Positions 1 through 55,018 of a stretch of DNA of 64,000 nt are shown piece by piece. Under the pieces are notes generated by a model. That model did no database searches. It was not told the origin of the DNA and saw only the letters and a list, made by a program, of their open reading frames with translations. The DNA is taken from contig NZ_BONY01000008.1 in NCBI RefSeq assembly GCF_016862955.1, forward strand, positions 144,352 to 208,351. Direction: 5' to 3'. Numbering within the stretch: position 1 is the stretch's first letter; every line of letters begins with the position of its first letter. The position numbers and the translations under genes are program-made. This stretch comes from Rhizocola hellebori. GTDB lineage: Bacteria; Actinomycetota; Actinomycetes; Mycobacteriales; Micromonosporaceae.

Positions 1-1248
1 TTTCAGTACAGCTCGTCGGCTGACCCCGCTCTGGCCGCTCGTCATTGGACAGTCCGGACCGGTGGGGGCGGGCCGGGGATACCCGGCGCCTCCTGGCTGG
101 CATCCAACGTCACGTTCCCCGTCGTGGATGGACAGAAGGTCCTTCAGCTGTCCTCCTACACCGACGGCACCGGCGCCGGGACTGCCCAAACCGAGGTCTA
201 CCACCAGCGGAAGTTCTTCGAAGGCACCTATGCCAGTCGCGTCCGCTTCGCGGATACACCGATAGCCGGAAACGACGGCGACCGTATCGTGGAGACCTTC
301 TTCACGATCACCCCGTTGGCCTACTCGATGGATCCGAGCTACGGAGAAATCGACTTCGAGTATCTGGCGAACGGAGGATGGGGCGAGACAGGCTCTGCCT
401 TCTTCGAAACCACTTGGGAGACCTATCAGCCGGACCCGTGGGTCGCCGACAACGTTCATGCCGTCCAGCGGCGCAGCTACAACGGCTGGCACGATCTGGT
501 CGCTCAGGTCAGTGGCGGCCGAGTCAAATACTTCATCGATGGCACCCTTGTCGCCGATCACGGTGACAAGTTCTATCCCGAGACACCAATGTCTATCAAC
601 TACAACCTCTGGTTCATTGACAGCTCCGGCCATTCAGGCGGCCGAAGCACCTATATCCAGCAGGTGGACTGGCTCTATTTCGCCGGCAATGAGGTGATCT
701 CGGGTGACGTGGCCCGCAATCGGGTCAACGCCTACCGGGGCATTGGAACGTCGCATGTGGACACTGTCGGAACGGCCGGCACCTGTCCCGATCCGGGAGG
801 CGGCGGGCCGATCTCGCCCAGCACCTGGTACAGCGTCGTCAACAAGACCAGCGGCAAATGCGTCGACGCCCGCGCCGCGGGAACAGCCAACGGCACGGCG
901 ATCCAGCAGTACACGTGCAACAACACCTATGCCCAGCAGTACCAGTTCCAGCCCACCGGTGGCAGCAATGTGCGCATCAACAGCCGCAACAACTCCGCGC
1001 AGGTCCTCGATGTAAGCGGAGTGTCCACTGCGGACAATGCGGTGGTGCACCTTTGGGCATACGTGGGAGGTGGCAATCAGCAGTGGACGCCGGTGTCGGA
1101 GGGTAACGGCTATTACCACTTCGTCGCCGTACACAGTGGAAAATGCCTTGATGTGCCGGCCTCCTCTACCGCCGACAGTGTGCAGCTCGTGCAATACACG
1201 TGCAATGGCACCGGGGCTCAGTCGTTCCGGCTTGTCGCCCAGCCGTAG
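1..1248 (+). CDS. Secreted glycoside hydrolase-like (GH16/concanavalin-like) protein with two C-terminal ricin-B lectin repeats. 5' partial: frame 1 is open from nt 1 with no stop, so the gene begins upstream of the window.
   Basis: ORF 124..1248 plus open frame back to nt 1. N-terminal part has the EIDFEY / GWGETG beta-sandwich hydrolase-like pattern. C-terminus has two ricin-B QxW repeats (AIQQYTCNNTYAQQYQF, QQWTP, VQLVQYTCNGTGAQSFRL). Confidence 0.7.
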   Translation, partial: FQYSSSADPALAARHWTVRTGGGGPGIPGASWLASNVTFPVVDGQKVLQLSSYTDGTGAGTAQTEVYHQRKFFEGTYASRVRFADTPIAGNDGDRIVETFFTITPLAYSMDPSYGEIDFEYLANGGWGETGSAFFETTWETYQPDPWVADNVHAVQRRSYNGWHDLVAQVSGGRVKYFIDGTLVADHGDKFYPETPMSINYNLWFIDSSGHSGGRSTYIQQVDWLYFAGNEVISGDVARNRVNAYRGIGTSHVDTVGTAGTCPDPGGGGPISPSTWYSVVNKTSGKCVDARAAGTANGTAIQQYTCNNTYAQQYQFQPTGGSNVRINSRNNSAQVLDVSGVSTADNAVVHLWAYVGGGNQQWTPVSEGNGYYHFVAVHSGKCLDVPASSTADSVQLVQYTCNGTGAQSFRLVAQP

Positions 1249-11612: not shown

Positions 11613-12002
11613 ATGGAAAGTCTGGTCACCTTTGTCTGCCAACACGGCGCCGGCAAAAGCCGCATCGCCGCGGCCCTGTTCAATGCGGCCGCGCCACCCG
11701 GCTGGCGGGCAACCTCCGCCGGTATCGAGCCTCAAGAGCAACCGAGTGCGGCCGCCGCATCAATGTTGGTTGCCGACCCCGCGGCAGCGGAGCTCGACAC
11801 CACCGCCCCTCGCCCATTGGGCGACACCCACAACGGCATGGTCGTAGCCATCGACTGCGATATCCCCGAGGCCCGGCAGTGGATGCTCACCCACGAATGG
11901 CCCGACCCGCAAGTCCTCGCGGAGCTCCGTGCCCTGACCGCCGAACTTATCGCGGGTCTGAACCTGCGGCTATCGAGCGACCAGCATGGGCAGCTGGCGT
12001 AA
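11613..12002 (+). CDS. Low-molecular-weight phosphotyrosine-phosphatase / ArsC-like family protein (P-loop variant)
   Basis: N-terminal VTFVCQHGAGKSRIAAALF resembles the LMW-PTP/ArsC CX5R P-loop but with altered spacing; 129 aa. Confidence 0.5.
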   Translation: MESLVTFVCQHGAGKSRIAAALFNAAAPPGWRATSAGIEPQEQPSAAAASMLVADPAAAELDTTAPRPLGDTHNGMVVAIDCDIPEARQWMLTHEWPDPQVLAELRALTAELIAGLNLRLSSDQHGQLA

Positions 12003-12545
12003 CGTCAGGCCGACGCGGGCGATGCTGGCTGGGACGGCCAGCGCCATGGGCCAGACGAAGCCTGGCGCCGCGTACCCGATGGAAAAGAGCATGATCAGGT
12101 CGAGCAGGCTCATGGCGCAGGCGCCCATCACGGCGATACGCGTGCGGGAGTAGGTGTTGCTGGTTGCCGCGGCGGCCAGCACCGCGATAGTGGCCAAAAG
12201 GCTTGCCACGAAGGCGATGACGGCGGGCCTGGGAATGGGCCAGGTCCAAAAGCGAGCAGCCACAAGACTGGCGCCCCAGCACATCCCTACGGCAGGCCCG
12301 GTGACAAGCATCAGGCGCGCAGCCCGCCGTGCCGGTGAGTGCCGGGCAAATGCGGCATTGATTTCTTTTGTGGTACCGAATTCGGCTAACGCCCTTGCGG
12401 CAGCGTCCTGCGGCGACAGGCCCGTGCCGAGGTGATGGTGGTAAGTCTCGGCCAGCCCGTCGGCGAGCTCGTCAAGGGCGTCGGCGGGCAGACGGCAGCG
12501 GGCGAGGCCGGCCAGAAAAGTCTCGATCAGGTGGTGGCTGGCCAC
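11970..12545 (-). CDS. PadR-associated HAAS-domain membrane protein (N-terminal cytoplasmic helical domain + 3-4 TM)
   Basis: ETFLAGLARCRLPADALDELADGLAETYHHHLG...ALAEFGTTKEI follows the DUF1700/HAAS pattern; hydrophobic C-terminal half; overlaps the PadR stop. Confidence 0.65.
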   Translation of the reverse strand: MASHHLIETFLAGLARCRLPADALDELADGLAETYHHHLGTGLSPQDAAARALAEFGTTKEINAAFARHSPARRAARLMLVTGPAVGMCWGASLVAARFWTWPIPRPAVIAFVASLLATIAVLAAAATSNTYSRTRIAVMGACAMSLLDLIMLFSIGYAAPGFVWPMALAVPASIARVGLTLRQLPMLVAR

Positions 12546-12871
12546 GGTTTGGCCTCCAGCATCGCGGTGACAGCGGCGGCGAACTCACGCCAGTTGGTGC
12601 GCTCGCCGGCCAGCTTGGTTTCACCGGCGGCGGTGAGCTGGTAGCTGCGGCGGCGTCGTCCGTCCACCACCGACCAGCTTCCGGCGATGAGGCCGGCGGC
12701 TTCGAGGCGGTGCAGCGCAGGGTAAACGGTGCCGGTGGGCAGATCGAAACGGCCGTTGCTGCCGTCGCGCAGCGCCTCTTTGACGGCGTAACCGTGCTGC
12801 GGCCCGTCGGCGAGGGTGGCCAGCAGCAGCACATCAAGGTGGCCTTTGAGGGCTTGCGAATCCGCCTTCAT
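12527..12871 (-). CDS. PadR-family transcriptional regulator
   Basis: LKGHLDVLLLATLADGPQHGYAV...TVYPALHRLEAAGLI is the PadR wHTH. Confidence 0.9.
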   Translation of the reverse strand: MKADSQALKGHLDVLLLATLADGPQHGYAVKEALRDGSNGRFDLPTGTVYPALHRLEAAGLIAGSWSVVDGRRRRSYQLTAAGETKLAGERTNWREFAAAVTAMLEAKPWPATT

Positions 12872-12888
12872 AGGTAGCTATCCTACAC
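12872..12888. promoter_or_regulatory. Motif TAGGTAgctaTCCTACACT directly upstream of the PadR start. The same motif (without gcta) recurs at 15808-15830 upstream of the monooxygenase.
   Basis: Shared 6+10-mer read directly at both sites. Confidence 0.35.
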
Positions 12889-12909
12889 TCATGACGGTGG
12901 GCAGCAAAC

Positions 12910-14154
12910 CTAGCGGCGGGTGAACGCCAGGCCGGCCAAGGCAAGCAGCATCCATCCGACCAGATACCAGAAGGCGACAGCGGGCGAGAGGACCGTCCAC
13001 AACAGACCCGCGATCGCCGAGGCGGCAAGGTTGCCCAGCGACTGGACGGCGGCGAGCATGCCGAAGGCAGACCCGCGAATGTCGCCCGGCGCCATCGCGG
13101 CGACTGCGGCGTGTTCGGCTGTCTCCACCGCGCCGATGCCGATCCCGGCAAGCACAAACGGTAAAGCCAGCACAGCGACCGAGGCCGGAGCGAGGGCGAA
13201 ACCGGTGTAGGCAAAGGTGAAACAGGCCACCCCGCCGGTCAGCACGACGACCGGGCCGGTCGCGCCGAGACGGTCGGCCAGCCTTCCGGCGGGGATGCTG
13301 GCCAGCGTGGCGGCCACGTTGTAGCCGATGTAGAGCGCGATCGCATAGGTGGTCGCGGTGGCGCTGCCGTGCTGAGGGGTGAGCAGCTCGGTGGCGCGCA
13401 GGATGAGCAATGTCGCTGCGATGTTGCCCACTTCGAACGCGGCCACCGCACCCAGCAGCCTGCCCAACCGCCCGCGTAGCACCGGACGGACGATGAACCG
13501 GATCGGGGTGCGTGGGCGGGCGGCGGCGCGGCGGGTATGCCGGATCGCGTAGACGATCGCTCCCGCCGCGAGCAGACCGGGAATCACCGATAGCGCGATC
13601 GCCCACCGCACTCCCACCACGGCGACCAAACCCAAGGCCAGCAGCGGGCCGAGAATCGCGCCGAGGTTGTCCATGGCCCGTTCGAAACCGTAGGCGCGCC
13701 CGTAAGCGGAAGCGGGTACGACATCGGCGAGCAGAGCGTTGCGGGCCGGCACCCGCAGCCCACGGGCCAGCCACGCGCCGCTGCGCAGCAGCCCCACCTG
13801 CCACACGCTCTGCGCGGCGGCGATGCCCGCCGAAAGCACCGCGGTGGCCGTGTATCCGCCTACTGCCACCGCCCGGCGCCGTTGCGGATCGTCAGCCAGC
13901 GCGCCACCGGCAAAGCGGGCAACCCCCGCCAACCCGTCGGCCACACCTTCGATCACCCCGAGCGCGGCCGCGGGTGCTTGCAGGGTCGAGGTCAGCAGCG
14001 AGGGCAGCAACGCTGTGGGTATCTCATGACCGACATCAGCGAGCAAACTCGCGGTGCCGATTCCGGTCACACCGGCGGTGAGCCAGCGCTGCTCGTCGGA
14101 GTCGGCAGCGACCGGCTCGGGCTGACTGGAGGTCACGGCACGTGAGTCTGCCAT
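12910..14154 (-). CDS. MFS transporter (12 TM)
   Basis: 414 aa; hydrophobic; MFS-type loop motifs; 12 nt downstream of the monooxygenase gene. Confidence 0.85.
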   Translation of the reverse strand: MADSRAVTSSQPEPVAADSDEQRWLTAGVTGIGTASLLADVGHEIPTALLPSLLTSTLQAPAAALGVIEGVADGLAGVARFAGGALADDPQRRRAVAVGGYTATAVLSAGIAAAQSVWQVGLLRSGAWLARGLRVPARNALLADVVPASAYGRAYGFERAMDNLGAILGPLLALGLVAVVGVRWAIALSVIPGLLAAGAIVYAIRHTRRAAARPRTPIRFIVRPVLRGRLGRLLGAVAAFEVGNIAATLLILRATELLTPQHGSATATTYAIALYIGYNVAATLASIPAGRLADRLGATGPVVVLTGGVACFTFAYTGFALAPASVAVLALPFVLAGIGIGAVETAEHAAVAAMAPGDIRGSAFGMLAAVQSLGNLAASAIAGLLWTVLSPAVAFWYLVGWMLLALAGLAFTRR

Positions 14155-14166
14155 AGACCTCTCTTA

Positions 14167-15750
14167 CTATGGCTGCAGCCACCGGTTCAGGTAGCCGTGC
14201 AGTCTCGGCAGGCCGGTGACGCCAGCGCGCAAGCCGATGTATCCGTCCGGGCGGACCAGGATGAGGCCGGCGTCGCTGGGGCCGAAACCTAGACGTTGCA
14301 AGGCTTTTCCGGTCGCGTCGGTGCGGCCGGTCGCGGACAGGCGGTGGACCGCTACCGATCGGCTGTGCGGCGGGTGTAACAGTTCCCCGGCTGCGGGCCA
14401 GCCTGGCCCGCACAGCATCAAATGCCAGCCCGGCTGGCGCAACAACGTGTGCAGAGTCGTTGGCAGTCCTTCGTGGATGACTGGTGCGTCGGGCATCCGG
14501 TCGCCTGCCTTCGGCCCGCGGCGAGGAGCATGCGGTTCGTCGATCGACAGCGGGCTGCGCCGGTAGCTGATGGCCAGCTGCGAAATGGTGCGAAACCCGT
14601 ACCGGCGGCTCAGTTTGGAGCAGACCACCAAGGGGATGAGGCGGGGCGCTACCTGCGTGCGGGCGAAGCTCACCAGCGGGTTGGTAGAGGTGGCGATGGT
14701 GAAGGCCCGGTCGGTGAACCGCAGCACCTCAGCACCGATCGGCACACGTTCCGGCTGGTAGGTGTCCAGCAATCGCAACGGGGCAAGGCCGGCCGTGACC
14801 TGGGCGAGTTTCCAGCCCAAATTGACCGCGTCCTGGATGCCGGTGTTCATTCCCTGCGCTCCGGCGGGGCTGTGGATGTGCGCGGCATCCCCGGCCAGAA
14901 ACACCCGCCCGGCCCTATATTGCACCGCTCCCCTGTTGTGCAGCCGAAAATTCGTCATCCACACCGGATCGCGCAACCGCACCCCACCTTCCCCGGTGTA
15001 GGCGTCGGCCAACGCCTGAACCTCGGCCAGAAAGACGGGCTGCGCAACGGGTGTGTCATCAGAGCGCGGTCGCATGGCGAGCATTCGCCAGGTGGCTGGT
15101 TTGCCCAGCGGGAAGAAGAACAGCATTCCGTGCCGGGAAAGGAAGACGTGGGCCGCACCGGTTTCGATCCCGTCAGCCTCCAGATCCGCCAGCACAAAGG
15201 TTTGCGGGTACGCGGCGCCCTCGAAAGCTATCCCGGCCTGCTGCCGCACCGTGGAATGCGCGCCATCACAGCCGACGACGTATCCCACGTCGACCTGTTC
15301 CTGCCTACCGTCGCCGTGGCGAAGCACGCACTTAACCGCATCAGCAGTTTGTCGCATGTGGACAAGCTGGGTACCGCGTTCCACCACCACATCGCGAGAA
15401 GCAAGATGCTCACCCAGGATGCGTTCCGTTTCCGCTTGCGACAGGAACAGCAGGAACGGGTAGGCAGTATCCTCCACTCCGATATCGAACAACTCGACCG
15501 GCACCACGCGCCGCCCCGCGTGCATCCTCAGCTGGACAGCGCGATTGCCCAGGGCGACCAGCTCCTCGGTGACGCCGAGCCCGGCAAGCACCTCCAGCGT
15601 TCGCGGCTGGATCGCCAGCGCCCGCGATTCGCTTGCCCGGTCAAGGTTGCGGTCGACGATCCGCATATTGGTGCCGTAGGCCGCCAGCTGTGCGGCCAGG
15701 CTCAGCCCGGTCGGACCGGCGCCCACGACCAGCACATCCACATCGCTCAT
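14167..15750 (-). CDS. FAD-dependent aromatic-ring monooxygenase (PheA/TfdB / PHBH-fold, with C-terminal thioredoxin-like domain)
   Basis: MSDVDVLVVGAGPTGLSLAAQLAAYG is the FAD GxGxxG; DG and GD motifs (FLAGDAAHIHSPAGAQGMNTGIQDA); 527 aa. Confidence 0.85.
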   Translation of the reverse strand: MSDVDVLVVGAGPTGLSLAAQLAAYGTNMRIVDRNLDRASESRALAIQPRTLEVLAGLGVTEELVALGNRAVQLRMHAGRRVVPVELFDIGVEDTAYPFLLFLSQAETERILGEHLASRDVVVERGTQLVHMRQTADAVKCVLRHGDGRQEQVDVGYVVGCDGAHSTVRQQAGIAFEGAAYPQTFVLADLEADGIETGAAHVFLSRHGMLFFFPLGKPATWRMLAMRPRSDDTPVAQPVFLAEVQALADAYTGEGGVRLRDPVWMTNFRLHNRGAVQYRAGRVFLAGDAAHIHSPAGAQGMNTGIQDAVNLGWKLAQVTAGLAPLRLLDTYQPERVPIGAEVLRFTDRAFTIATSTNPLVSFARTQVAPRLIPLVVCSKLSRRYGFRTISQLAISYRRSPLSIDEPHAPRRGPKAGDRMPDAPVIHEGLPTTLHTLLRQPGWHLMLCGPGWPAAGELLHPPHSRSVAVHRLSATGRTDATGKALQRLGFGPSDAGLILVRPDGYIGLRAGVTGLPRLHGYLNRWLQP

Positions 15751-15807
15751 GGCGGCGACCCACGCCCGGTAGCTGCATCCATGTGGGCACTCCCGTCCAG
15801 CGGCACC

Positions 15808-15830
15808 TATACGTAGGTATCCTACACTAG
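15808..15830. promoter_or_regulatory. GTAGG-TAT-CCTAC palindrome / TAGGTATCCTACACT motif upstream of the monooxygenase. Shared with the PadR promoter at 12872.
   Basis: Read directly. Confidence 0.35.
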
Positions 15831-15831
15831 C

Positions 15832-16218
15832 CTACGGCGCCTGGCAGTGTCCGGACGGCGCGAAGCGGCAGCGCCCATCGCGGCACTCGGCGATGGTGTT
15901 GGTGATGTTCAGGCGGGTCCGCTGCAGCTCGGCGATTTTGGCATCGATGCGGTCCACAACGGCTTCCATGCGCCACAGCTGGCTGGTTTGACTTGCCTCG
16001 CCGGAGTCGTGGGCGCGCAAGGCGTCGATGACCTCGTCGAGGGTGAAGCCGAGCTGTTGAAGCATGCGGGCCATGCGGATGCGCTCGACCGCGTCCGGCG
16101 TGTAGTCGCGATATCCCGAGGGCCGCCGTTGCGCCGGCGGCAGGACTCCGCGGCGCTCATAGAAGCGCACCGTGTCGATGGTGACCCCAGCGTCTGCGGC
16201 GAGCTGACCGATCTTCAC
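15832..16218 (-). CDS. MerR-family transcriptional regulator with C-terminal Cys cluster (C112/C117/C125)
   Basis: MKIGQLAADAGVTIDTVRFYERRGVL is the HTH; the C-terminus is AECRDGRCRFAPSGHC. Confidence 0.9.
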   Translation of the reverse strand: MKIGQLAADAGVTIDTVRFYERRGVLPPAQRRPSGYRDYTPDAVERIRMARMLQQLGFTLDEVIDALRAHDSGEASQTSQLWRMEAVVDRIDAKIAELQRTRLNITNTIAECRDGRCRFAPSGHCQAP

Positions 16219-16242
16219 ATGGGACCTGATTTCTTCGACGTC

Positions 16243-16274
16243 TTGACTCTGGACCTAAGTCCAGAGTTTACGTT
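16243..16274 (+). promoter_or_regulatory. Textbook MerR-type promoter/operator: -35 TTGACT (16243-16248), 20-bp spacer containing the perfect dyad CTCTGGAC-ctaa-GTCCAGAG (16247-16266), -10 TACGTT (16269-16274). It drives the + strand operon, and MerR1 is transcribed divergently.
   Basis: Hexamers, dyad and the overlong 20-bp spacer were read directly; the architecture follows established MerR/ZntR/CueR promoters. Confidence 0.55.
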
Positions 16275-16347
16275 TGGAGGGCAACCGGGGCAACACCCCC
16301 GGTCAGATCCCGAAGGGTGGCAACAGGTGGAGGACAACATCATTTCG

Positions 16348-16743
16348 ATGCCGGACAGGCCGGTCATCGCGTGTGACATGAGCACGGCTCCAGACACGCC
16401 GGACGAGCGGACCGCCGAATACGGCCGGCTGTTCGGGCAGCACCTGCTGGGCAAAGAGCGCACGGCCGAAGGGATCCGCTTCCGGCTGCGTGCCGCCGAA
16501 GGTGTGGAGGCGTGGGTGAGGGACCTTTCCGCGCGGGAGAAGGCGTGCTGCCCGTTCGCCGACTTCGAAATCGCCACCGCCGACGAAGAGGTGCGCTGGG
16601 ACATCACCGTCGTCGACGACGATTTGGCCAGGGCGGCGCTGGACGAGTTCTACCAGGTGCCCGAGATGACAAGCGCCGGTGAAGACTGGCGGGTCATGGG
16701 ACAACGGCTGGCCGATCGCGGCTTCAGCATCACCACCCGCTGA
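16348..16743 (+). CDS. Small cytoplasmic protein with conserved E-x-x-C-C-x-F vicinal-cysteine motif (131 aa). Paralog of the next gene; unknown family.
   Basis: SAREKACCPFADFEI; RBS GGTGGAGGA; it is the C-terminal part of the 298-aa track ORF, which otherwise overlaps MerR1. Confidence 0.55.
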   Translation: MPDRPVIACDMSTAPDTPDERTAEYGRLFGQHLLGKERTAEGIRFRLRAAEGVEAWVRDLSAREKACCPFADFEIATADEEVRWDITVVDDDLARAALDEFYQVPEMTSAGEDWRVMGQRLADRGFSITTR

Positions 16744-16790
16744 CGTCCGGGGTTGCATCCTGTACCTAGGTACAGGTTTACCGTGGGGTC

Positions 16791-17156
16791 ATGACCACAC
16801 CGAACCTGCCGCCGGCCTGGGCGCCCGACGCGTGCACCCTGCCGACCGCAGACCGGCCGCTGCGGCTCTCCGAGTTCGATGACCTATTCACCGGCCTGAC
16901 GTCGCTAGACCGGATCAGCCCCGTCCAGATTCGCCTGCACCTGGCCGGGGCCGCCGGGCTGGAGGCCACGGTGCGCAATCTCACCGCCCGGGAGACCGAG
17001 TGCTGCTCGTTCTTCACCTTCACCACCACACCGGTTCCGGGCACAGCCGACGGCCGGCTGACCCTGGACGTGGAGGTACCCGCAGCGCACATCGCGGTGC
17101 TGGCGGCCCTGGCCGAGCGGGCGGAAACCCTTGCCGCATCAGGAAAGGCGAGCTGA
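16791..17156 (+). CDS. Paralogous small protein with the same vicinal-cysteine motif (121 aa)
   Basis: TARETECCSFFTFT aligns with REKACCPFADFEI in the previous gene; similar length and layout. Confidence 0.55.
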   Translation: MTTPNLPPAWAPDACTLPTADRPLRLSEFDDLFTGLTSLDRISPVQIRLHLAGAAGLEATVRNLTARETECCSFFTFTTTPVPGTADGRLTLDVEVPAAHIAVLAALAERAETLAASGKAS

Positions 17157-17181
17157 TGCAAGCCAGCGCCGGAGGCCGGCC

Positions 17182-17619
17182 GTGAACAATGAGGGCGGGC
17201 TGCGTACCGGTGAGGTCGCCGAACAGGCCGGGGTCAACATCCAAACCTTGCGCTACTACGAACGCCGGGGCCTGATCGCCGAACCCGCCCGCAGCCCCGG
17301 CGGACACCGCACCTACCCGGCCGACACGGTCACCCTGCTCGCCGTCATCAAAGCCGCCCAGAAACTCGGGTTCACCCTCGACGAGGTCGCCGAGCTGCTC
17401 GCCACCGGCCGCCGCCGTCACCCCACCCGCGACCTTCAACACCGGGCCGCCGCCAAACTCACCGAAGTGGACCAAAAGATCGCCCACCTGCACACCATCC
17501 GCCAAGCCCTCACCCAGCTGATCGCCGCCCGCTGCGACAGCCTCACCAACTGCACCTGCGCCGATTGCCCGATGCCGTTTGCCGGACTGGCCCAACCCGA
17601 AGGACCCACACCACAATGA
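17182..17619 (+). CDS. MerR-family regulator with C-terminal Cys-rich tail (CDSLTNCTCADCP)
   Basis: GTG start with a GGAGG SD; HTH GLRTGEVAEQAGVNIQTLRYYERRGL; four Cys in the last 30 aa. Confidence 0.85.
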   Translation: MNNEGGLRTGEVAEQAGVNIQTLRYYERRGLIAEPARSPGGHRTYPADTVTLLAVIKAAQKLGFTLDEVAELLATGRRRHPTRDLQHRAAAKLTEVDQKIAHLHTIRQALTQLIAARCDSLTNCTCADCPMPFAGLAQPEGPTPQ

Positions 17620-17918
17620 CCACACCTGCCACGCAGCAGACGGCACACGGACAAGACAACAGCCCACCCAAACGCAGCAAGATAACCGGCGGGCTCGCCG
17701 CGCTCGCATGCGCGGCCTGCTGCGCCATCCCACTACTGATCGCCGCCGGACTGGTGACCGGCGCAGGAGCCGCGATCCTGGAGAAGACCCTGCTCGCCGT
17801 CGCCGCGCTGCTGGCGGCTGCCGCCCTGGGCATGTGGTGGTGGCACCGCCGCCGCCAAGCCGCAAAAGCCGTCGCCGCGGGCGCATCCGGCTGCGGCAGC
17901 GGCAACTGCTCCTGCTAA
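17616..17918 (+). CDS. MerF/MerT-like small membrane protein (2 TM, CC pair in TM1, C-terminal CGSGNCSC). A putative thiophilic-metal transporter.
   Basis: GGLAALACAACCAIPLLIAAGLV resembles the MerT/MerF TM1 vicinal-Cys motif; ATGA overlap with MerR2. Confidence 0.5.
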   Translation: MTTPATQQTAHGQDNSPPKRSKITGGLAALACAACCAIPLLIAAGLVTGAGAAILEKTLLAVAALLAAAALGMWWWHRRRQAAKAVAAGASGCGSGNCSC

Positions 17919-18128: not shown

Positions 18129-18890
18129 TCAGGCGACTTTGCGGTGGTACACCCTCATGGCGAACGCGTAGGCGACGATGAGGATGCCGGCGCACCAGCC
18201 CAGGGCGATCCAGATGTCATTGCCGACGGGCTGCTGCTCGAACAAGGCTCGCAGGGCGTTGACGATGGAGGTGACCGGCTGGTTCTCGGCGAAGGCTTTC
18301 ACCGGTCCGGGCATGGTTTCGGTGGGGACGAAGGCCGAGCTGATGAAGGGCAGGAAGATGAGCGGGTAGGAGAAGGCGGTCGCACCGTCGGTGGAGGAGG
18401 CCGCCAGCCCCGCGATCATCGCAACCCAGGTCAGGGAGAGGGTGAACATCGCCAGGATCGCGGCGACGGCGAGCCAGTCGAGGATTCCCGCCGAGGTACG
18501 GAATCCCATCACCAGCCCGACGGCGATGATGACGACCACCGAGATGGCGTTGGACACCACCGAGGTCAGCACGTGTCCCCATAGGACAGACGATCGTGCG
18601 ATCGGCATGGAGTGGAACCGTTCGAAGATGCCGCTTTGCATGTCGTTGAACAACCGGAAGCCCGTGTAGGAGATGCCACTGGCGATGGCGATGAGCAAAA
18701 TCCCGGGCATCAGATAGTTGGTGTAGTTGTCGGTGCCGGTCTGGATGGCACCGCCGAACACGTAGCGGAACAACAGCATGAACGCGATCGGCATGATGGT
18801 GACGGTGATGATGGTGTCCATGCTGCGGGTGACGTGCCGGATGGACCGGCCGAGCATTACCCCTGTGTTGCTGATGACATGTGCGCTCAT
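18129..18890 (-). CDS. ABC-2 type exporter permease (6 TM)
   Basis: 253 aa, ABC-2 hydrophobic pattern; ATGA overlap with the ATPase. Confidence 0.85.
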   Translation of the reverse strand: MSAHVISNTGVMLGRSIRHVTRSMDTIITVTIMPIAFMLLFRYVFGGAIQTGTDNYTNYLMPGILLIAIASGISYTGFRLFNDMQSGIFERFHSMPIARSSVLWGHVLTSVVSNAISVVVIIAVGLVMGFRTSAGILDWLAVAAILAMFTLSLTWVAMIAGLAASSTDGATAFSYPLIFLPFISSAFVPTETMPGPVKAFAENQPVTSIVNALRALFEQQPVGNDIWIALGWCAGILIVAYAFAMRVYHRKVA

Positions 18891-19660
18891 CGCCGCGCTC
18901 CTTCCTTGTTTCCGACGATCGCCAGGAAGATCTCTTCCAGGGTGGGCTGACGTTCGACCAGTTCGGCCTTTGCGGGCGGCAGGAGCTGACGTAGCTCTGC
19001 CAGAGTGCCGGAGACGATGATGATGCCCTGGTGCAGGATGGCTATGCGGTCGGCCAGTTTTTCGGCCTCTTCCAGGTATTGGGTGGTGAGAAGGATCGTC
19101 GTTCCTTTGCCGGCCAGGCTTTGGATCTCGTGCCACACTTCGAGGCGGGCTTCCGGGTCAAGCCCGGTGGTCGGCTCGTCCAGGAAGATGACCGGCGGGT
19201 CGCCGATGAGGCTCATGGCGATGTCGAGGCGGCGGCGCATGCCACCGGAATAGGTCGCTACTCGGCGTCCTCCCGCATCGGACAGGCCGAACCGTGCCAG
19301 CAGGTCGTCGGCGACGGTGCCAGGATTGGGTACCAGCCGCAGCTTGGCGACCATGATGAGGTTCTCCCGGCCGGTGAGGATCTCGTCGACCGCGGCGAAC
19401 TGCCCGGTCAGGCTGATCGACTCCCGAACCCGCTCCGGCTTGGCCACCGCGTCGAATCCGTTGACTGTTGCCGTTCCGCCATCTGGTTTGAGCAAAGTGG
19501 ACAGGATGCGGACAACGGTGGTCTTGCCGGCTCCGTTGGAGCCGAGCAGCGCGAAGATGCTCCCGCTGGCCACCGAGAAGTCCACGCCTTTGAGGACTTC
19601 GAGTTTGCCGTAAGACTTTTGCAATCCGCTGACTTGGATGGCGAGGGGTGGGGTTTTCAT
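18887..19660 (-). CDS. ABC transporter ATP-binding protein (DrrA-like)
   Basis: GSNGAGKTT (Walker A), YSGGMRRRLDIAMSL (signature), VIFLDEPTTGLD (Walker B). Confidence 0.9.
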   Translation of the reverse strand: MKTPPLAIQVSGLQKSYGKLEVLKGVDFSVASGSIFALLGSNGAGKTTVVRILSTLLKPDGGTATVNGFDAVAKPERVRESISLTGQFAAVDEILTGRENLIMVAKLRLVPNPGTVADDLLARFGLSDAGGRRVATYSGGMRRRLDIAMSLIGDPPVIFLDEPTTGLDPEARLEVWHEIQSLAGKGTTILLTTQYLEEAEKLADRIAILHQGIIIVSGTLAELRQLLPPAKAELVERQPTLEEIFLAIVGNKEGARR

Positions 19661-19674
19661 GTGTCGCTCTCTCC

Positions 19675-20532
19675 TTATTCGACAGTCACGTTGGCGGGGG
19701 CAACGCCGAAGCCTTTGAGCGCGGCGTAGGTCAGCTTGTCCATGCGCGCCCCTTCGAAGTTCACAGTGGCCAAGGCCCGGTAGTACTTCTTGCTCCAGCC
19801 ACGGAAGGAGCAGTCGCGCAGGATCGCCCCTCGCATCGACACGCCCTCAAGCCCTGCCCGGTCGAACTTCACCCCGGTGAAGGACGCCCCGTCGAAGTTG
19901 AGGCCGCTCAGATCGGAGATGGAGAAGTCCACGCCGGTGAAGGTGCAGCGCTCGAAGATGGTGTGGCGAAGGTCGGTCTTGCGGAACGCGACATCGATCA
20001 ACACCGCGTCGGCGAAGCGGACTCCTTCGAGACCGGAGATGCTGAAGTCGGTGCGCACCAACCGGGTTCGGTGGAAGCTGGAACCCTTCAGCTCGGAGGT
20101 GGTCATGACCGCGTCGGTCAGGTTGGCGCCGTCGAAGTTCGCCTCGGCCAGGTCGCTGCTCTTGAACTTGCCACCGGTCAGATCCGCGTTGGCGAAATTG
20201 GAGCCACGCAGCGCGCTGGTGCTGAACTTTCCGTCCCGCGCCACCACACCGGCGAAGTCGCTTCCCCGCAGGTCGGTCGAATCGAATCGGGTCACGACCT
20301 TTCGCTCCAGCACCCGAGACAGTTGCGACACCTCCTGCACCGTCTCCTCGATGTCGCCGATGCTGTCGACGGTCATCTCGAAAGCGGTCTCCTCGTCCTT
20401 GCCTTCGGCCAGCAGCTCGCGATATCGCTCCTGCAGGTCGGCGAGCAGATCAGCTTTGAGCTCACCGACGCTCTTGGTGCCCTCGTAGGTGGCGAAGATG
20501 CCGTCGATGTATTCGTTCAGCCTGTTGTTCAT
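19675..20532 (-). CDS. Pentapeptide-repeat protein with N-terminal PadR-associated (HAAS/DUF1700-like) helical domain. No TM segment.
   Basis: N-terminus MNNRLNEYIDGIFATYEGTKSVGELKADLLADLQERYRELLAEGKDEETAFEMTVDSIGDIEET; residues 80-285 are continuous A(D/N)LxG pentapeptide repeats. Confidence 0.8.
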   Translation of the reverse strand: MNNRLNEYIDGIFATYEGTKSVGELKADLLADLQERYRELLAEGKDEETAFEMTVDSIGDIEETVQEVSQLSRVLERKVVTRFDSTDLRGSDFAGVVARDGKFSTSALRGSNFANADLTGGKFKSSDLAEANFDGANLTDAVMTTSELKGSSFHRTRLVRTDFSISGLEGVRFADAVLIDVAFRKTDLRHTIFERCTFTGVDFSISDLSGLNFDGASFTGVKFDRAGLEGVSMRGAILRDCSFRGWSKKYYRALATVNFEGARMDKLTYAALKGFGVAPANVTVE

Positions 20533-20544
20533 CGTGGTTTCCCC

Positions 20545-20874
20545 TTACAGCAGCGTGTCCAGTACGCGTTTGGCGTACGCCCAGGTGGTTTTGTTGTGCG
20601 CGTAAGTCGCGTGGCCTTTTTCGGTTACCCGGAAGTACTTGCGTCTTCCGCCCTGGGATTCGTCGCCCCAGTACCACGTGATGTCGCCATCGGCTTCCAG
20701 ACGCCGGACGCTGGAGTACATCGTGGCTTCCTTGAGCTCGTACTCGCCCTTTGATCGTTCGCCGATCAGCTTGACGATCTCGTAGCCGTAACGGTCTGCC
20801 TCCGTCAGCAACCGCAAGATCATCGTGTCGGTGTTCCCCCGTAGCAGGTCAGATGTGACCTTGTTCGTGCTCAT
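20545..20874 (-). CDS. PadR-family transcriptional regulator (lower GC than its neighbours)
   Basis: LRGNTDTMILRLLTEADRYGYEIVKLI...TMYSSVRRLEADGDI. Confidence 0.9.
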   Translation of the reverse strand: MSTNKVTSDLLRGNTDTMILRLLTEADRYGYEIVKLIGERSKGEYELKEATMYSSVRRLEADGDITWYWGDESQGGRRKYFRVTEKGHATYAHNKTTWAYAKRVLDTLL

Positions 20875-20986
20875 ACCTCACCTCCTGAGCTACACCGTAG
20901 CTCGCACTACTGTGACTGTCAAGGTACTAGGGTATTCGAGGTAGGCCGATGGGTATGGTGGGTCCAGCGTGCGACTGGTTTAATTT

Positions 20987-21040
20987 CTACCTTGAATTTT
21001 TTAACATCTCAACTAGATGATCTTAATTTATTCAAGGTAG
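20987..21040. promoter_or_regulatory. AT-rich island with 10-bp perfect inverted repeat CTACCTTGAA ... TTCAAGGTAG (34-nt spacer) upstream of the PadR gene. A candidate PadR operator.
   Basis: Region 20881-21053 is markedly AT-rich; the IR was read directly. Confidence 0.4.
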
Positions 21041-21053
21041 TTAGCTGAAGTCG

Positions 21054-23000
21054 TTAAACCTCGATGTGAGAGCCCATGATGATGGTGCGGTCGCGCGGCA
21101 GGGCGAAGTGTTCGGCGGCGTCGGCGGTGATGTGTGAGGTGGCCACGAACAGCCGCTTGCGCCACGGCACCATCGAGGCGTCGGGGCCGCTGCGCAATTC
21201 AATGGTGGAAAGGAAATAGGAGGCGTCGTCGAGGTCGAGGCGCCCCTCGGTCTGGGCTGGGTCCAGCATCCGCAGCGCGGCCGGCACGTCAGGGTTTTCC
21301 ATGTAGCCGAAGCGCGCCGTCACATGGATGATGCCGTCATCGGCGTGGCCGAGGTCGTCGACGATAAGCCTTTCCTCGGCCGGCACTCGCGGCATCGGTT
21401 CGGTTTGCACCGACAGGATCACGACGTGCTGGTGGCGGACCCGGTTGTGTTCCACGTTGGCCCGCAACGCCAGTGGCGCGGTTGCCTTGCCCCGGTTGAG
21501 AAACACGGCGGTGCCCGGCGTGCGGCGGATCAGGGCTTTGCCGTCACGCAGTTTGGCGACGAACTCGCTCAGTGAGCCTTCGCGCTGCTGACGGCGAGCG
21601 GTGACCAGCTCACGCCCACGCTGCCATGTGATCATGATGGTGAAGGCGACAATGGCGATCAACAGCGGCAGCCAGGCGCCGTGCAGGATCTTGGTCAGGT
21701 TGGCGGCCAGGAAGAGCAGATCGACGCCGAGCAGGATGACCGCGCCAATAGCCAGCAGCCACACCGGTGTCTTCCACTTCAGGTGGGCGACATAGAGGAA
21801 CAGTGTCGTGGTGATGGTGATAGTTCCGGTGACCGCCATGCCGAACGCGAAGGCGAGCGCCGCCGAGCTGCGGAAGGCGAACACCAGGATCAGCACGGAG
21901 GTCATCAGCAGCCAGTTGATCCACGGTACGTAGATCTGGCCAATCGTCGACTCGGAGGTGTGCGCGATCCGCAGTCTGGGCAGATAACCCAATCGTGCGG
22001 CCTGCGCCGCGACCGAGAACGCGCCGGTGATCACCGCTTGCGAGGCGATCACCGTGGCGGCGGTGGCCAGCAGTACCAGCGGCAGCCGCGCCCAGCCCGG
22101 GGCGAGCAGGAAGAAGGGGCTGCTGATGTTGGCCGGGTCTTCGAGGATCAGCGCGCCCTGGCCCATGTAGCTCAATGCGCAGGCGGGCAGCACGAGGAAC
22201 AGCCATCCTCGTGCGATGGCCTTGCGGCCGAAGTGACCCATGTCGGCGTACAGCGCCTCGGCGCCGGTGATGGCCAGCACGATCGCGGCCAGCGCGAAAA
22301 ACGCGACCCCGAAGTTGCCGGCCAGGAACTTCAGCGCGTAAAGCGGTGACAGGGCTTTGAGGATGTCCGGATGGGTGGCGATGCCCACGACACCCAGGAC
22401 GCCGATGGTGGTGAACCAGACGATCATCACCGGCCCGAAGACCTTGCCCACGGCCGCAGTTCCGCGCCGCTGCACCAGAAACAGGGCCACGATGATCACC
22501 GCTGTGATGGGGATGATCGCGTCTGCGAAGGCCGGGTTGACGACCTTGATGCCCTCCACTGCGGACAGTACCGAGATCGCCGGGGTGATCATGCTGTCGC
22601 CGAAGAACAGCGCGGCGCCGAAGATGCCCAGTCCGGCCAGGGTCACGGCCGCCCGCTTGCCGGTGCCCGAAGCCCACTGCCGCAGCAGGGTGATCAGCGC
22701 CATGATGCCGCCTTCACCCTGGTTGTCTATCCGCATGGCCAGAAGTACGTAGGTCACCGTCACGATGATCATCACGGACCAGAAGATGGTGGAGACCACA
22801 CCGAAGACATTGTCGACCGATACCGGCACCGGATGGGGATCGGCCGGGTTGAACACCGTCTGAATGGTGTAGATCGGGCTGGTGCCGATGTCGCCGAACA
22901 CCACGCCCAGGGCGGCGACGATCACTGCCAGCCGCACGACATCGCTTACCCCGCGGTCGTGATTCGTCTCGGCCTGTGGGTGATTGCCGGCCATTACCAT
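21054..23000 (-). CDS. kup: KUP/HAK/KT-family potassium uptake protein
   Basis: GVVFGDIGTSPIY near the N-terminus; about 650 aa, 12 TM + C-terminal cytoplasmic domain; the exact start is uncertain (the ORF extends to 23051). Confidence 0.9.
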   Translation of the reverse strand: MVMAGNHPQAETNHDRGVSDVVRLAVIVAALGVVFGDIGTSPIYTIQTVFNPADPHPVPVSVDNVFGVVSTIFWSVMIIVTVTYVLLAMRIDNQGEGGIMALITLLRQWASGTGKRAAVTLAGLGIFGAALFFGDSMITPAISVLSAVEGIKVVNPAFADAIIPITAVIIVALFLVQRRGTAAVGKVFGPVMIVWFTTIGVLGVVGIATHPDILKALSPLYALKFLAGNFGVAFFALAAIVLAITGAEALYADMGHFGRKAIARGWLFLVLPACALSYMGQGALILEDPANISSPFFLLAPGWARLPLVLLATAATVIASQAVITGAFSVAAQAARLGYLPRLRIAHTSESTIGQIYVPWINWLLMTSVLILVFAFRSSAALAFAFGMAVTGTITITTTLFLYVAHLKWKTPVWLLAIGAVILLGVDLLFLAANLTKILHGAWLPLLIAIVAFTIMITWQRGRELVTARRQQREGSLSEFVAKLRDGKALIRRTPGTAVFLNRGKATAPLALRANVEHNRVRHQHVVILSVQTEPMPRVPAEERLIVDDLGHADDGIIHVTARFGYMENPDVPAALRMLDPAQTEGRLDLDDASYFLSTIELRSGPDASMVPWRKRLFVATSHITADAAEHFALPRDRTIIMGSHIEV

Positions 23001-54277: not shown

Positions 54278-55018
54278 ATGTGGCCGATGGGGTGGGAGGC
54301 GCTGGGGCACTGGGGTGAAGACGCCGCTCGTGTCGAACGGCTTGCGGGCGGAGTCGCCAACGACGTGTGGAGTGTGCGGGTCAACGGACGCCTTGCGGTA
54401 GGTCGTCTAGGTGCCAGGAGCGACGCCGACCTGGCGTGGGAGACCGAGCTGCTTCAGTACCTCGACCGCGAAGGCCTGACAGTGCCTGTGCCGATCCCGG
54501 CTAAGGATGGCCGATTGTTCGCCGATGGTCTGGTGGTGATGACCTATGTGGAGGGCGGACCGCCCGAGACACCGGCCGACTGGCGTCGCGTGGCCGGCAC
54601 GCTGCGCGAGGTGCATCGGTTGACGCAGGGCTGGCCGCAGCGCCCGGGTTGGCGGTCGTCGACCGATCTGCTGCACGCCGATTCCGGGACGAAGGTGGAC
54701 CTCGGCGCGATGCCTGCCGAGGGTGTTGCTCGATGCCGGGCGGCGTGGGCGCGGCTGACCGGACGTCAGACCTGTGTCGTGCACGGCGACCCTAACCCCA
54801 GAAACATCCGTGTGACCGCGAATCACGTCGGGTTGATTGACTGGGACGAGTCGCACGTCGACGTCCCCGACCTCGACCTCGTGCTTCCCGGCAACGCCGC
54901 CGGCCTCGACGACGGCGCGCACGACATCGCCGCGCAAGCATCGGCCGCGTGGGAAGCCGCCGTCTGCTGGGACGACGACTACTCAGTCAAGCGGCTGGCC
55001 GAAGTCCGCCCGGTCTGA
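54278..55018 (+). CDS. APH-family phosphotransferase (small-molecule kinase)
   Basis: VVHGDPNPRNI and LIDWDESHVD motifs; starts 2 nt after the MFS stop. Confidence 0.8.
   Translation: MWPMGWEALGHWGEDAARVERLAGGVANDVWSVRVNGRLAVGRLGARSDADLAWETELLQYLDREGLTVPVPIPAKDGRLFADGLVVMTYVEGGPPETPADWRRVAGTLREVHRLTQGWPQRPGWRSSTDLLHADSGTKVDLGAMPAEGVARCRAAWARLTGRQTCVVHGDPNPRNIRVTANHVGLIDWDESHVDVPDLDLVLPGNAAGLDDGAHDIAAQASAAWEAAVCWDDDYSVKRLAEVRPV

Follow-up and report, generated by a model that had tools for sequence, protein, structure and literature searches.

A PadR-associated palindrome as the putative operator of a flavin monooxygenase and efflux operon in Rhizocola hellebori

Four genes lie head to tail on the minus strand of a 64,000-nucleotide stretch of the Rhizocola hellebori genome (contig NZ_BONY01000008.1, positions 144,352 to 208,351 of the forward strand; hereafter the window). 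They encode a flavin adenine dinucleotide (FAD)-dependent monooxygenase, a transporter of the major facilitator superfamily (MFS), the small PadR-family regulator PadR1 and a membrane protein with a HAAS-like N-terminus. One palindromic sequence is found twice in this locus, once over the start codon of padR1 (site 1) and once upstream of the monooxygenase gene (site 2). We consider it highly probable, judging from the sequences, that this palindrome is the operator of PadR1, through which the regulator would control both its own gene and the monooxygenase-MFS operon. The original prediction, that PadR1 regulates itself and gates the enzyme and pump, finds strong support in comparative genomics; across the loci compared, the palindrome is associated exclusively with PadR genes.

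Two matching sites in the padR1-monooxygenase locus

The pattern TAGGTA(N0-6)TCCTACACT occurs exactly twice in the window, at 12871-12889 and 15814-15828, with 0 matches expected (100 shuffles); the motif predicted to be shared by the two places is thus present at both. Aligned without gaps on the minus strand, site 1 (AGTGTAGGATAGCTACCTATG) and site 2 (AGTGTAGGATACCTACGTATA) are identical at 19 of 21 positions, and the gcta insert by which they had been told apart was an alignment artefact. Identity in the flanks (22 of 80 positions) is at the random level, and the similarity ends at the operator edges. Both sites are built on a 13-bp palindrome, GTAG-N5-CTAC, with conserved flanks, the cores lying at 12874-12886 and 15813-15825. 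The looser core VTAG-N5-CTAB has 3 matches in the 64-kb window, whose guanine-plus-cytosine (GC) content is 66%, against 0.66 expected; the third, at 54398, resembles sites 1 and 2 in pattern alone.

Site 1, the putative PadR1-proximal operator (12869-12889, minus strand), has its core palindrome GTAGgATAgCTAC at 12886-12874 and a -10-like TAGGAT at 12885-12880. The motif had been placed within 20 nt of the PadR1 start, which was close but understated the proximity: the ATG itself (12871-12869; complement 'cat') falls inside the site, as CTACCT-ATG. Farther upstream, a degenerate distal site, CTAGGTTTGCTGC (12901-12913, minus strand), has one arm mismatch, CTGC for CTAC. The MFS stop codon (12912-12910) overlaps this copy, whose start is 27 bp upstream of site 1. 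Homologous loci carry CTAGGTTTGCTAC or CTAGGTTTACTAC at the equivalent 26-27 bp offset (positions -41/-42 versus -15), and the sequence at 12901-12913 is best read as a degenerate remnant of an ancestral distal site.

Site 2, the putative operator of the monooxygenase-MFS operon (15808-15828, minus strand), lies 3 nt past the stop codon of the MerR-type gene merR1, in the 81-nt gap that separates merR1 from the monooxygenase gene. Its core is the perfect palindrome GTAGG-ATA-CCTAC (15825-15813), with a -10-like TAGGAT at 15824-15819. The core stands 63-75 nt upstream of the monooxygenase ATG, in agreement with the predicted 60-80 nt. Between the site and the gene, the leader contains a short upstream open reading frame, MDAATGRGSPP* (15747-15782, minus strand), which is preceded by GGGAG and whose TGA overlaps the monooxygenase ATG as ATGA. 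The first ~30 nt of the leader past the operator are near-identical (ATAGGyGCCGCTsGACGGGAGTGCCCAyATG) between the window and the locus of the closest monooxygenase homologue with DNA (L029, 1-60; 86% identical). The upstream frame of that locus has 10 codons against 11 in the window; the peptides are unconserved, and both the preceding GGGAG and the terminal ATGA overlap are kept. This frame and its overlap suggest translational coupling. A scan of 11900-16900 against Rfam at E <=1 returned no RNA family, so the leader contains no known riboswitch, and no convincing terminator was found between the genes of the same interval.

Conservation of the palindrome beside PadR genes

A scan of species-representative genomes with PadR1 gave 25 loci (357.7 kb in total; 63-84% identity for 24 of them), including Kribbella, Jiangellaceae, Dactylosporangium, Paractinoplanes, Microbispora, Nonomuraea, Acrocarpospora and Asanoa. 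In these loci the pattern [GCA]TAG-N5-CTA[CGT] matches 59 times, 54 of these within 80 nt upstream of a PadR start, and 23 of the 25 loci have one to three copies within that distance. In most loci the proximal copy runs into the start codon as GTAGnnTnnCTACyT-ATG, which is identical to the arrangement of site 1. Two loci (L003 and L006) have the equivalent sequence 17-23 nt farther upstream, followed by a purine-rich stretch resembling a ribosome-binding site. In a count matrix of 56 unique sites the arms GTAG and CTAC are invariant, the spacer, rich in A/T, varies, and conserved flanks widen the site to ~21 bp, ATAg-[G/C]TAG-N5-CTA[C/G]-cTAT. Homologous sites occur in two to three copies at fixed offsets of 15 bp or 26-28 bp. 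Two-fold symmetry combined with repetition at regular spacing is the hallmark of an operator bound by a dimer. The regulator is also constant in its company: in the window and in 23 of the 25 loci a partner gene follows PadR, its start overlapping the PadR stop, as in a HAAS-PadR dyad.

The canonical PadR operator is an inverted repeat, ATGT-N8-10-ACAT (PMC3506622, PMC5050560). The sites described here have the form xxGT-AG-N5-CT-ACxx, with GT and AC nine bases apart, and several homologous sites read ATGTAG...CTACAT; in the window the sequences are GTGTAG...CTACCT and GTGTAG...CTACGT, with invariant bases unlike the canonical ATGT/ACAT. The GTAG-N5-CTAC box may be a variant of the canonical PadR box. 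We found no relevant report of a GTAG/CTAC PadR operator in the literature.

One locus has a site pair away from its PadR gene. In Asanoa sp. (L022, PadR 64% identical), ATAGCGACTCTAC and GTAGCATCCCTAC lie 15 bp apart at 14647-14674, just upstream of an open reading frame whose N-terminus resembles, by eye, CydA, subunit I of cytochrome bd oxidase. The pair lies at 6.6 kb from PadR and may mark an additional member of the regulon, unlinked to the regulator.

A scan of metagenomes for GTAGNATANCTACNTAT found at least 120 contigs. Among the matches listed, about 100 are AT-rich contigs, as expected by chance for a 14-base pattern of such composition, and the high-GC subset alone is therefore informative. 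In all 15 of the listed contigs with GC >=0.65 a PadR gene starts at or beside the motif, and in 14 of the 15 this PadR is 59-77% identical to PadR1. Three listed contigs of 41-46% GC carry two copies, ATGTAGATTAACTACCTAT and GAGTAGAATATCTACTTAT, 27-28 bp apart and ~80 nt upstream of PadR genes 33-42% identical to PadR1 (L066, 9000-9140; L070, 4420-4560; L110, around 1060-1190, minus strand). This two-copy layout in low-GC contigs suggests that the operator type extends far beyond actinobacteria, and the high-GC and low-GC results together point to an old operator type tied to the clade of PadR1.

The neighbours of the constant PadR-partner pair vary among ABC exporters, an FAD monooxygenase and a small membrane protein. 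A divergent operon in Kribbella and two metagenomic contigs (L001, L045, L056) encodes a DrrAB-like ABC ATPase and ABC-2 permease; that of three Jiangellaceae loci (L005, L007, L008) combines an ABC ATPase, an ABC-2 permease and a 63%-identical monooxygenase; and in Microbispora (L015) and L055 the divergent neighbour is a small membrane protein. A contig known from its genes alone (P0003) encodes a 74%-identical monooxygenase beside ABC genes, a 114-residue PadR, a 191-residue protein and an LMWPc-domain protein. The head-to-tail layout of the window recurs in L030 (monooxygenase 71% identical), where two adjacent sites, GTAGCTTTGCTAC-GT-ATAGGATTGCTAT, precede small membrane open reading frames and the monooxygenase, followed by GTAGGATAGCTACCC-ATG, which opens the PadR gene. 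Monooxygenase homologues accompanied by the motif always have an adjacent PadR, in three gene layouts, and seven homologue loci without PadR (63.7 kb) contain zero copies of the pattern. From this comparison the motif appears to track the regulator, not the enzyme, and the enzyme would be under PadR control in at least three gene orders.

Encoded proteins and neighbouring genes

PadR1 (12527-12871, minus strand; 114 residues) belongs to the PadR family by its Pfam match (PF03551, 75.8 bits, cut-off 27, residues 16-88). Its best NCBIfam match, TIGR03433 (padR_acidobact), scores 94.4 bits, under the curated cut-off of 101.8. The closest solved chains are all of subfamily-2, with 113-126 residues: 9qbc, Rv3488 (5zhc), cdPadR1 (5dym) and LmrR (3f8b). 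Members of this subfamily are single-domain proteins of ~11-13 kDa in which a C-terminal helix is present and a distinct C-terminal domain absent (PMC5728393). Trp94 of PadR1 aligns with the drug-stacking Trp96 of LmrR, and homologues retain the tryptophan (ANWREF, DHWQEF, TNWHEF). Tyr28, Tyr50 and a basic run (R72-R75) align with tyrosines and arginines or lysines of LmrR and other solved PadR proteins; in Bacillus subtilis PadR the DNA-contact residues are Tyr20, Tyr42 and Lys67 (PMC5728393). By its length and its closest solved relatives PadR1 is assigned to the LmrR-like subfamily-2, not to the phenolic-acid type.

The partner (11970-12545, minus strand; 191 residues) starts at a GTG that overlaps the padR1 stop by 19 nt, and its N-terminus is helical and resembles HAAS or permease-prefix domains, followed by 3-4 hydrophobic segments (hydropathy). 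It scores 29.8 bits against perm_prefix_1 (NF038403, 'permease prefix domain 1'; cut-off 30). All 13 homologues compared match perm_prefix_1, and 9 of the 13 match Pfam HAAS at E <= 0.1 (best 3.6e-7). Most homologues outside the Microbispora group carry FGxP; copies in that group carry FGDA. The window protein probably belongs to the HAAS / permease-prefix family.

The monooxygenase (14167-15750, minus strand; 527 residues) is a group A flavoprotein with an FAD_binding_3 domain (270.8 bits) and a C-terminal aromatic-ring hydroxylase domain, Rng_hyd_C (31.8 bits). A homology search matched it at 100% identity with a Rhizocola hellebori protein (Micromonosporaceae), although look-ups by exact sequence gave no entry for it or for PadR1. 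Among solved structures, those closest to it are rifampin monooxygenase, OxyS, CabE and PgaE, angucycline oxygenases included; it reaches no NCBIfam equivalog cut-off, scoring 231.8 against the 800 required for rifampin monooxygenase. Exactly 12 nt after its stop codon, as had been described, begins the second gene of the operon, encoding an MFS transporter of 414 residues (12910-14154, minus strand; Pfam MFS_1, 104.3 bits), presumed to be an efflux pump. It is followed after 38 nt by padR1. A plasmid megablast of 11900-16300 returned nothing beyond short fragments of the monooxygenase gene from Streptomyces plasmids.

Monooxygenase homologues of 64-67% identity recur inside metal-resistance clusters. 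One (L031, 3504-7662) comes right after MerB and two MerR genes, beside a P-type ATPase; another (L153, 689-7629) follows CsoR, a CopZ-like HMA protein and two P-type ATPases. In the window, too, the monooxygenase gene lies beside two MerR genes (15832-17918). At the other end of the locus, a weak LMWPc-like open reading frame (low-molecular-weight phosphatase / arsenate-reductase-like; 11613-12002, plus strand) runs convergent to the partner gene. The LMWPc-domain protein of P0003 takes the equivalent place beside the PadR pair, so part of this neighbourhood is conserved.

Upstream of MerR1 (15832-16218, minus strand), the divergent gene starting at 16349 encodes a small protein with the Cys-Cys motif 'AREKACCPF', and a paralogue at 16791-17156 has 'ARETECCSF'. 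A Cys-rich membrane protein is encoded after a second MerR (17131-17619). Beyond these lies a second PadR system (18129-20871, minus strand). Its regulator, PadR2, is 31% identical to PadR1, and the genes after it encode a pentapeptide-repeat protein whose N-terminus is helical, then an ABC ATPase and an ABC-2 permease. The region upstream of PadR2 (20872-21060) contains GTAG-N6-CTAC, with a spacer one base longer, between TTGACA and a ribosome-binding site, and the sequence farther upstream is strikingly AT-rich for a window of 66% GC.

Proposed regulation, alternatives and related systems

The steps of binding, repression, transcription start and induction that we infer would run as follows. 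A PadR1 dimer would bind the ~21-bp palindrome. At site 1 it would cover the only conserved TANNNT hexamer (TAGGAT, TAGCAT or TAGCGT) together with the 5' end of a padR1-partner transcript that has little or no leader, so that occupancy over the -10-like TAGGAT would let PadR1 repress itself and its membrane partner. At site 2 it would cover the -10-like TAGGAT of the monooxygenase-MFS promoter and so keep the modifying enzyme and the efflux pump off. Read-through from site 2 probably also feeds padR1, since the four genes run head to tail with gaps of 12 nt and 38 nt before the regulator. Induction could take either of two routes: a hydrophobic aromatic or planar compound might be held between the two Trp94 residues of the dimer, as in LmrR, or the HAAS-type partner might relay a signal from the membrane. 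Release of the repressor would raise enzyme, pump, repressor and partner together, and repression would return once the inducer is gone. As to the substrate, the original prediction had followed the phenolic-compound model of PadR regulators, which does not suit a 114-residue, single-domain, LmrR-like protein of subfamily-2. Detoxification of an antibiotic or an aromatic xenobiotic appears more likely than that of phenolic acids, because PadR1 is of subfamily-2 and the monooxygenase is related to rifampin monooxygenase, OxyS and angucycline oxygenases.

Several points weigh against this proposal or parts of it. The site counts for R. hellebori cover 64 kb of the genome. The contig of L029 begins just downstream of the expected site 2, and conservation of that site could be checked only in the more distant L030. 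A sigma-70 consensus scan found no promoter in 11900-16900, so the -10 assignment of TAGGAT is one made by inspection, and in site 1 this hexamer stands 8 nt from the ATG, slightly over the typical spacing. The window partner scores 12.9 bits (E = 0.15) against Pfam HAAS (PF22564; cut-off 27) and lacks GxP, with FG-T-T at residues 56-59. A sensory role for it, as originally suggested, is plausible in view of the conservation of the partner and of the overlap between its start and the PadR stop; the window copy itself falls below the family threshold and is without GxP.

The shared sequence could instead be a promoter element, either a -10 box or the target of a special sigma factor. Both sites do contain a TANNNT-like TAGGAT oriented toward the downstream gene, and the spacing at site 1 would suit a leaderless transcript. 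Conservation, however, is two-fold symmetric, with GTAG and CTAC invariant while two positions within the hexamer vary. The distal variants (CTAG...CTAC or GTAG...CTAG) and the tandem pairs 15 or 27 bp apart are unlike promoters, and PadR genes keep the motif beside them in high-GC actinobacteria as well as in contigs whose GC is 44-46%. We regard a pure promoter element as improbable; the two readings are in any case compatible, for an operator overlapping the -10 region is itself a mode of repression. Still less probable is that site 2 is a non-functional relic, a product of chance or duplication, and that PadR1 regulates its own operon alone. PadR homologues such as Listeria LstR and LltR often regulate mainly their own operon (PMC6624303), and the gene order of the window is unlike the divergent layout of most homologous loci. 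Yet the palindrome of site 2, with 5-bp arms, is more perfect than that of site 1, and it lies at promoter distance in an 81-nt gap; similarity to site 1 stops at the operator edges, and monooxygenase homologues are tied to PadR sites in three independent layouts.

MerR1 had been offered as a second regulator, and the position claimed for it holds: it lies immediately upstream on the same strand, its stop codon (15832-15834) ending 3 nt before site 2. Monooxygenase homologues are also sometimes found near MerR genes elsewhere (L028, L031). MerR1 might therefore bind the motif, alone or with PadR1, and activate the monooxygenase operon. In MerR-type promoters the -35 and -10 elements are set 19-20 bp apart, an over-long spacer that contains the palindrome. 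Such an arrangement is found directly upstream of merR1: a perfect 9-bp inverted repeat, ACTCTGGAC-N4-GTCCAGAGT (16246-16267, plus strand), lies inside TTGACT-20 bp-TACGTT (16243-16274, plus strand), faces the divergent gene at 16349 and is unlike GTAG-N5-CTAC. We regard this repeat as the putative operator of MerR1, which would have its own cognate site outside the PadR system. No MerR-type long-spacer promoter is found around site 2, so that the surroundings of the site do not fit MerR-type activation of the monooxygenase promoter. Among the 25 loci, 23 have the motif beside PadR, irrespective of a MerR gene in the vicinity, and the monooxygenase loci with MerR and without PadR (L028, L031) lack it. 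Dual control by PadR1 and MerR1 is thus not supported, since MerR1 has an operator of its own and MerR is not a conserved neighbour of the PadR-monooxygenase module elsewhere; binding of the motif by MerR1 is very improbable indeed.

With PadR1 as the preferred regulator of both sites, the closest studied parallels are LmrR of Lactococcus lactis and the LftR-LftS pair of Listeria monocytogenes. LmrR is likewise a single-domain PadR of ~115 residues, with which PadR1 aligns over residues 6-96 (E = 6e-10). LmrR is an autoregulated repressor of the drug exporter LmrCD with palindromic operators in the promoter (PMC3506622, PMC5050560, PMC5728393), as proposed here for PadR1. The two systems differ in that LmrR is without a HAAS-type partner gene, binds ATGT-N8-10-ACAT and acts on an ABC exporter, whereas the predicted targets of PadR1 are a flavin monooxygenase and an MFS pump behind GTAG-N5-CTAC sites. 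B. subtilis PadR, which acts on padC, belongs to the same Pfam family, appears to share the DNA-contact tyrosines and represses until a small aromatic ligand releases it. Unlike the single-domain PadR1, it belongs to subfamily-1, has a mass of 19-22 kDa and uses a distinct C-terminal domain for dimerisation and ligand binding (PMC5728393), and it controls a decarboxylase instead of the monooxygenase and pump predicted here.

The partner gene finds its counterpart in LftR-LftS of Listeria monocytogenes, a PadR-like repressor in a two-gene operon with a HAAS-superfamily protein (LftS, DUF1048; Ravi et al., PMC11237479). LftR represses LieAB, an ABC exporter of the daunorubicin-resistance type (PMC4517056, PMC11237479), and PadR1 homologues adjoin similar ABC-2 exporters. 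In these papers LftS is described as a DUF1048 domain with no membrane region, whereas the partner of PadR1 has 3-4 hydrophobic segments; lieAB is unlinked to lftRS, whereas the predicted PadR1 targets are adjacent. A term search of the two papers returned no LftR operator sequence. HAAS domains have a conserved GxP kink in the third helix, and in the dyads that Ravi et al. (2024) describe, a standalone PadR-like winged helix-turn-helix protein is always paired with a protein that has an N-terminal three-helix HAAS domain and transmembrane segments (PMC11237479). From domain architecture, this pairing has been proposed as an alternative to two-component signalling (PMC11237479). One architecture listed there fuses HAAS to an FtsX-like permease (PMC11237479); in the window the domain precedes 3-4 hydrophobic segments instead. 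The passages on 'HAAS' in this paper give no operators or target genes for the dyads. To these dyads the present locus, with its weak HAAS match, would add a defined, predicted operator and a local regulon.

A wider reading, which we hold tentatively and at somewhat less than even odds, is that GTAG-N5-CTAC with TAT/ATA flanks is a hitherto undescribed operator common to a broad clade of HAAS-coupled PadR proteins, from high-GC actinobacteria to low-GC organisms unrelated to them. If true, it would be the first defined DNA target and regulon for a HAAS-PadR pair, comprising efflux pumps and, repeatedly, a flavin monooxygenase resembling Rox and OxyS. The regulatory logic of the locus itself would be that of the textbook, a repressor that controls its own gene and covers the -10 region of a detoxification operon, and in this sense an ordinary local resistance switch. 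For R. hellebori, the analysis assigns a predicted regulator, operator and two-promoter regulon to four unstudied genes, and the Rox/OxyS-like monooxygenase with its pump becomes a candidate inducible module for antibiotic inactivation and efflux. For the widespread and experimentally untouched PadR-HAAS group, it supplies a concrete predicted binding motif, with which the proposed signalling from HAAS to PadR would become directly testable.

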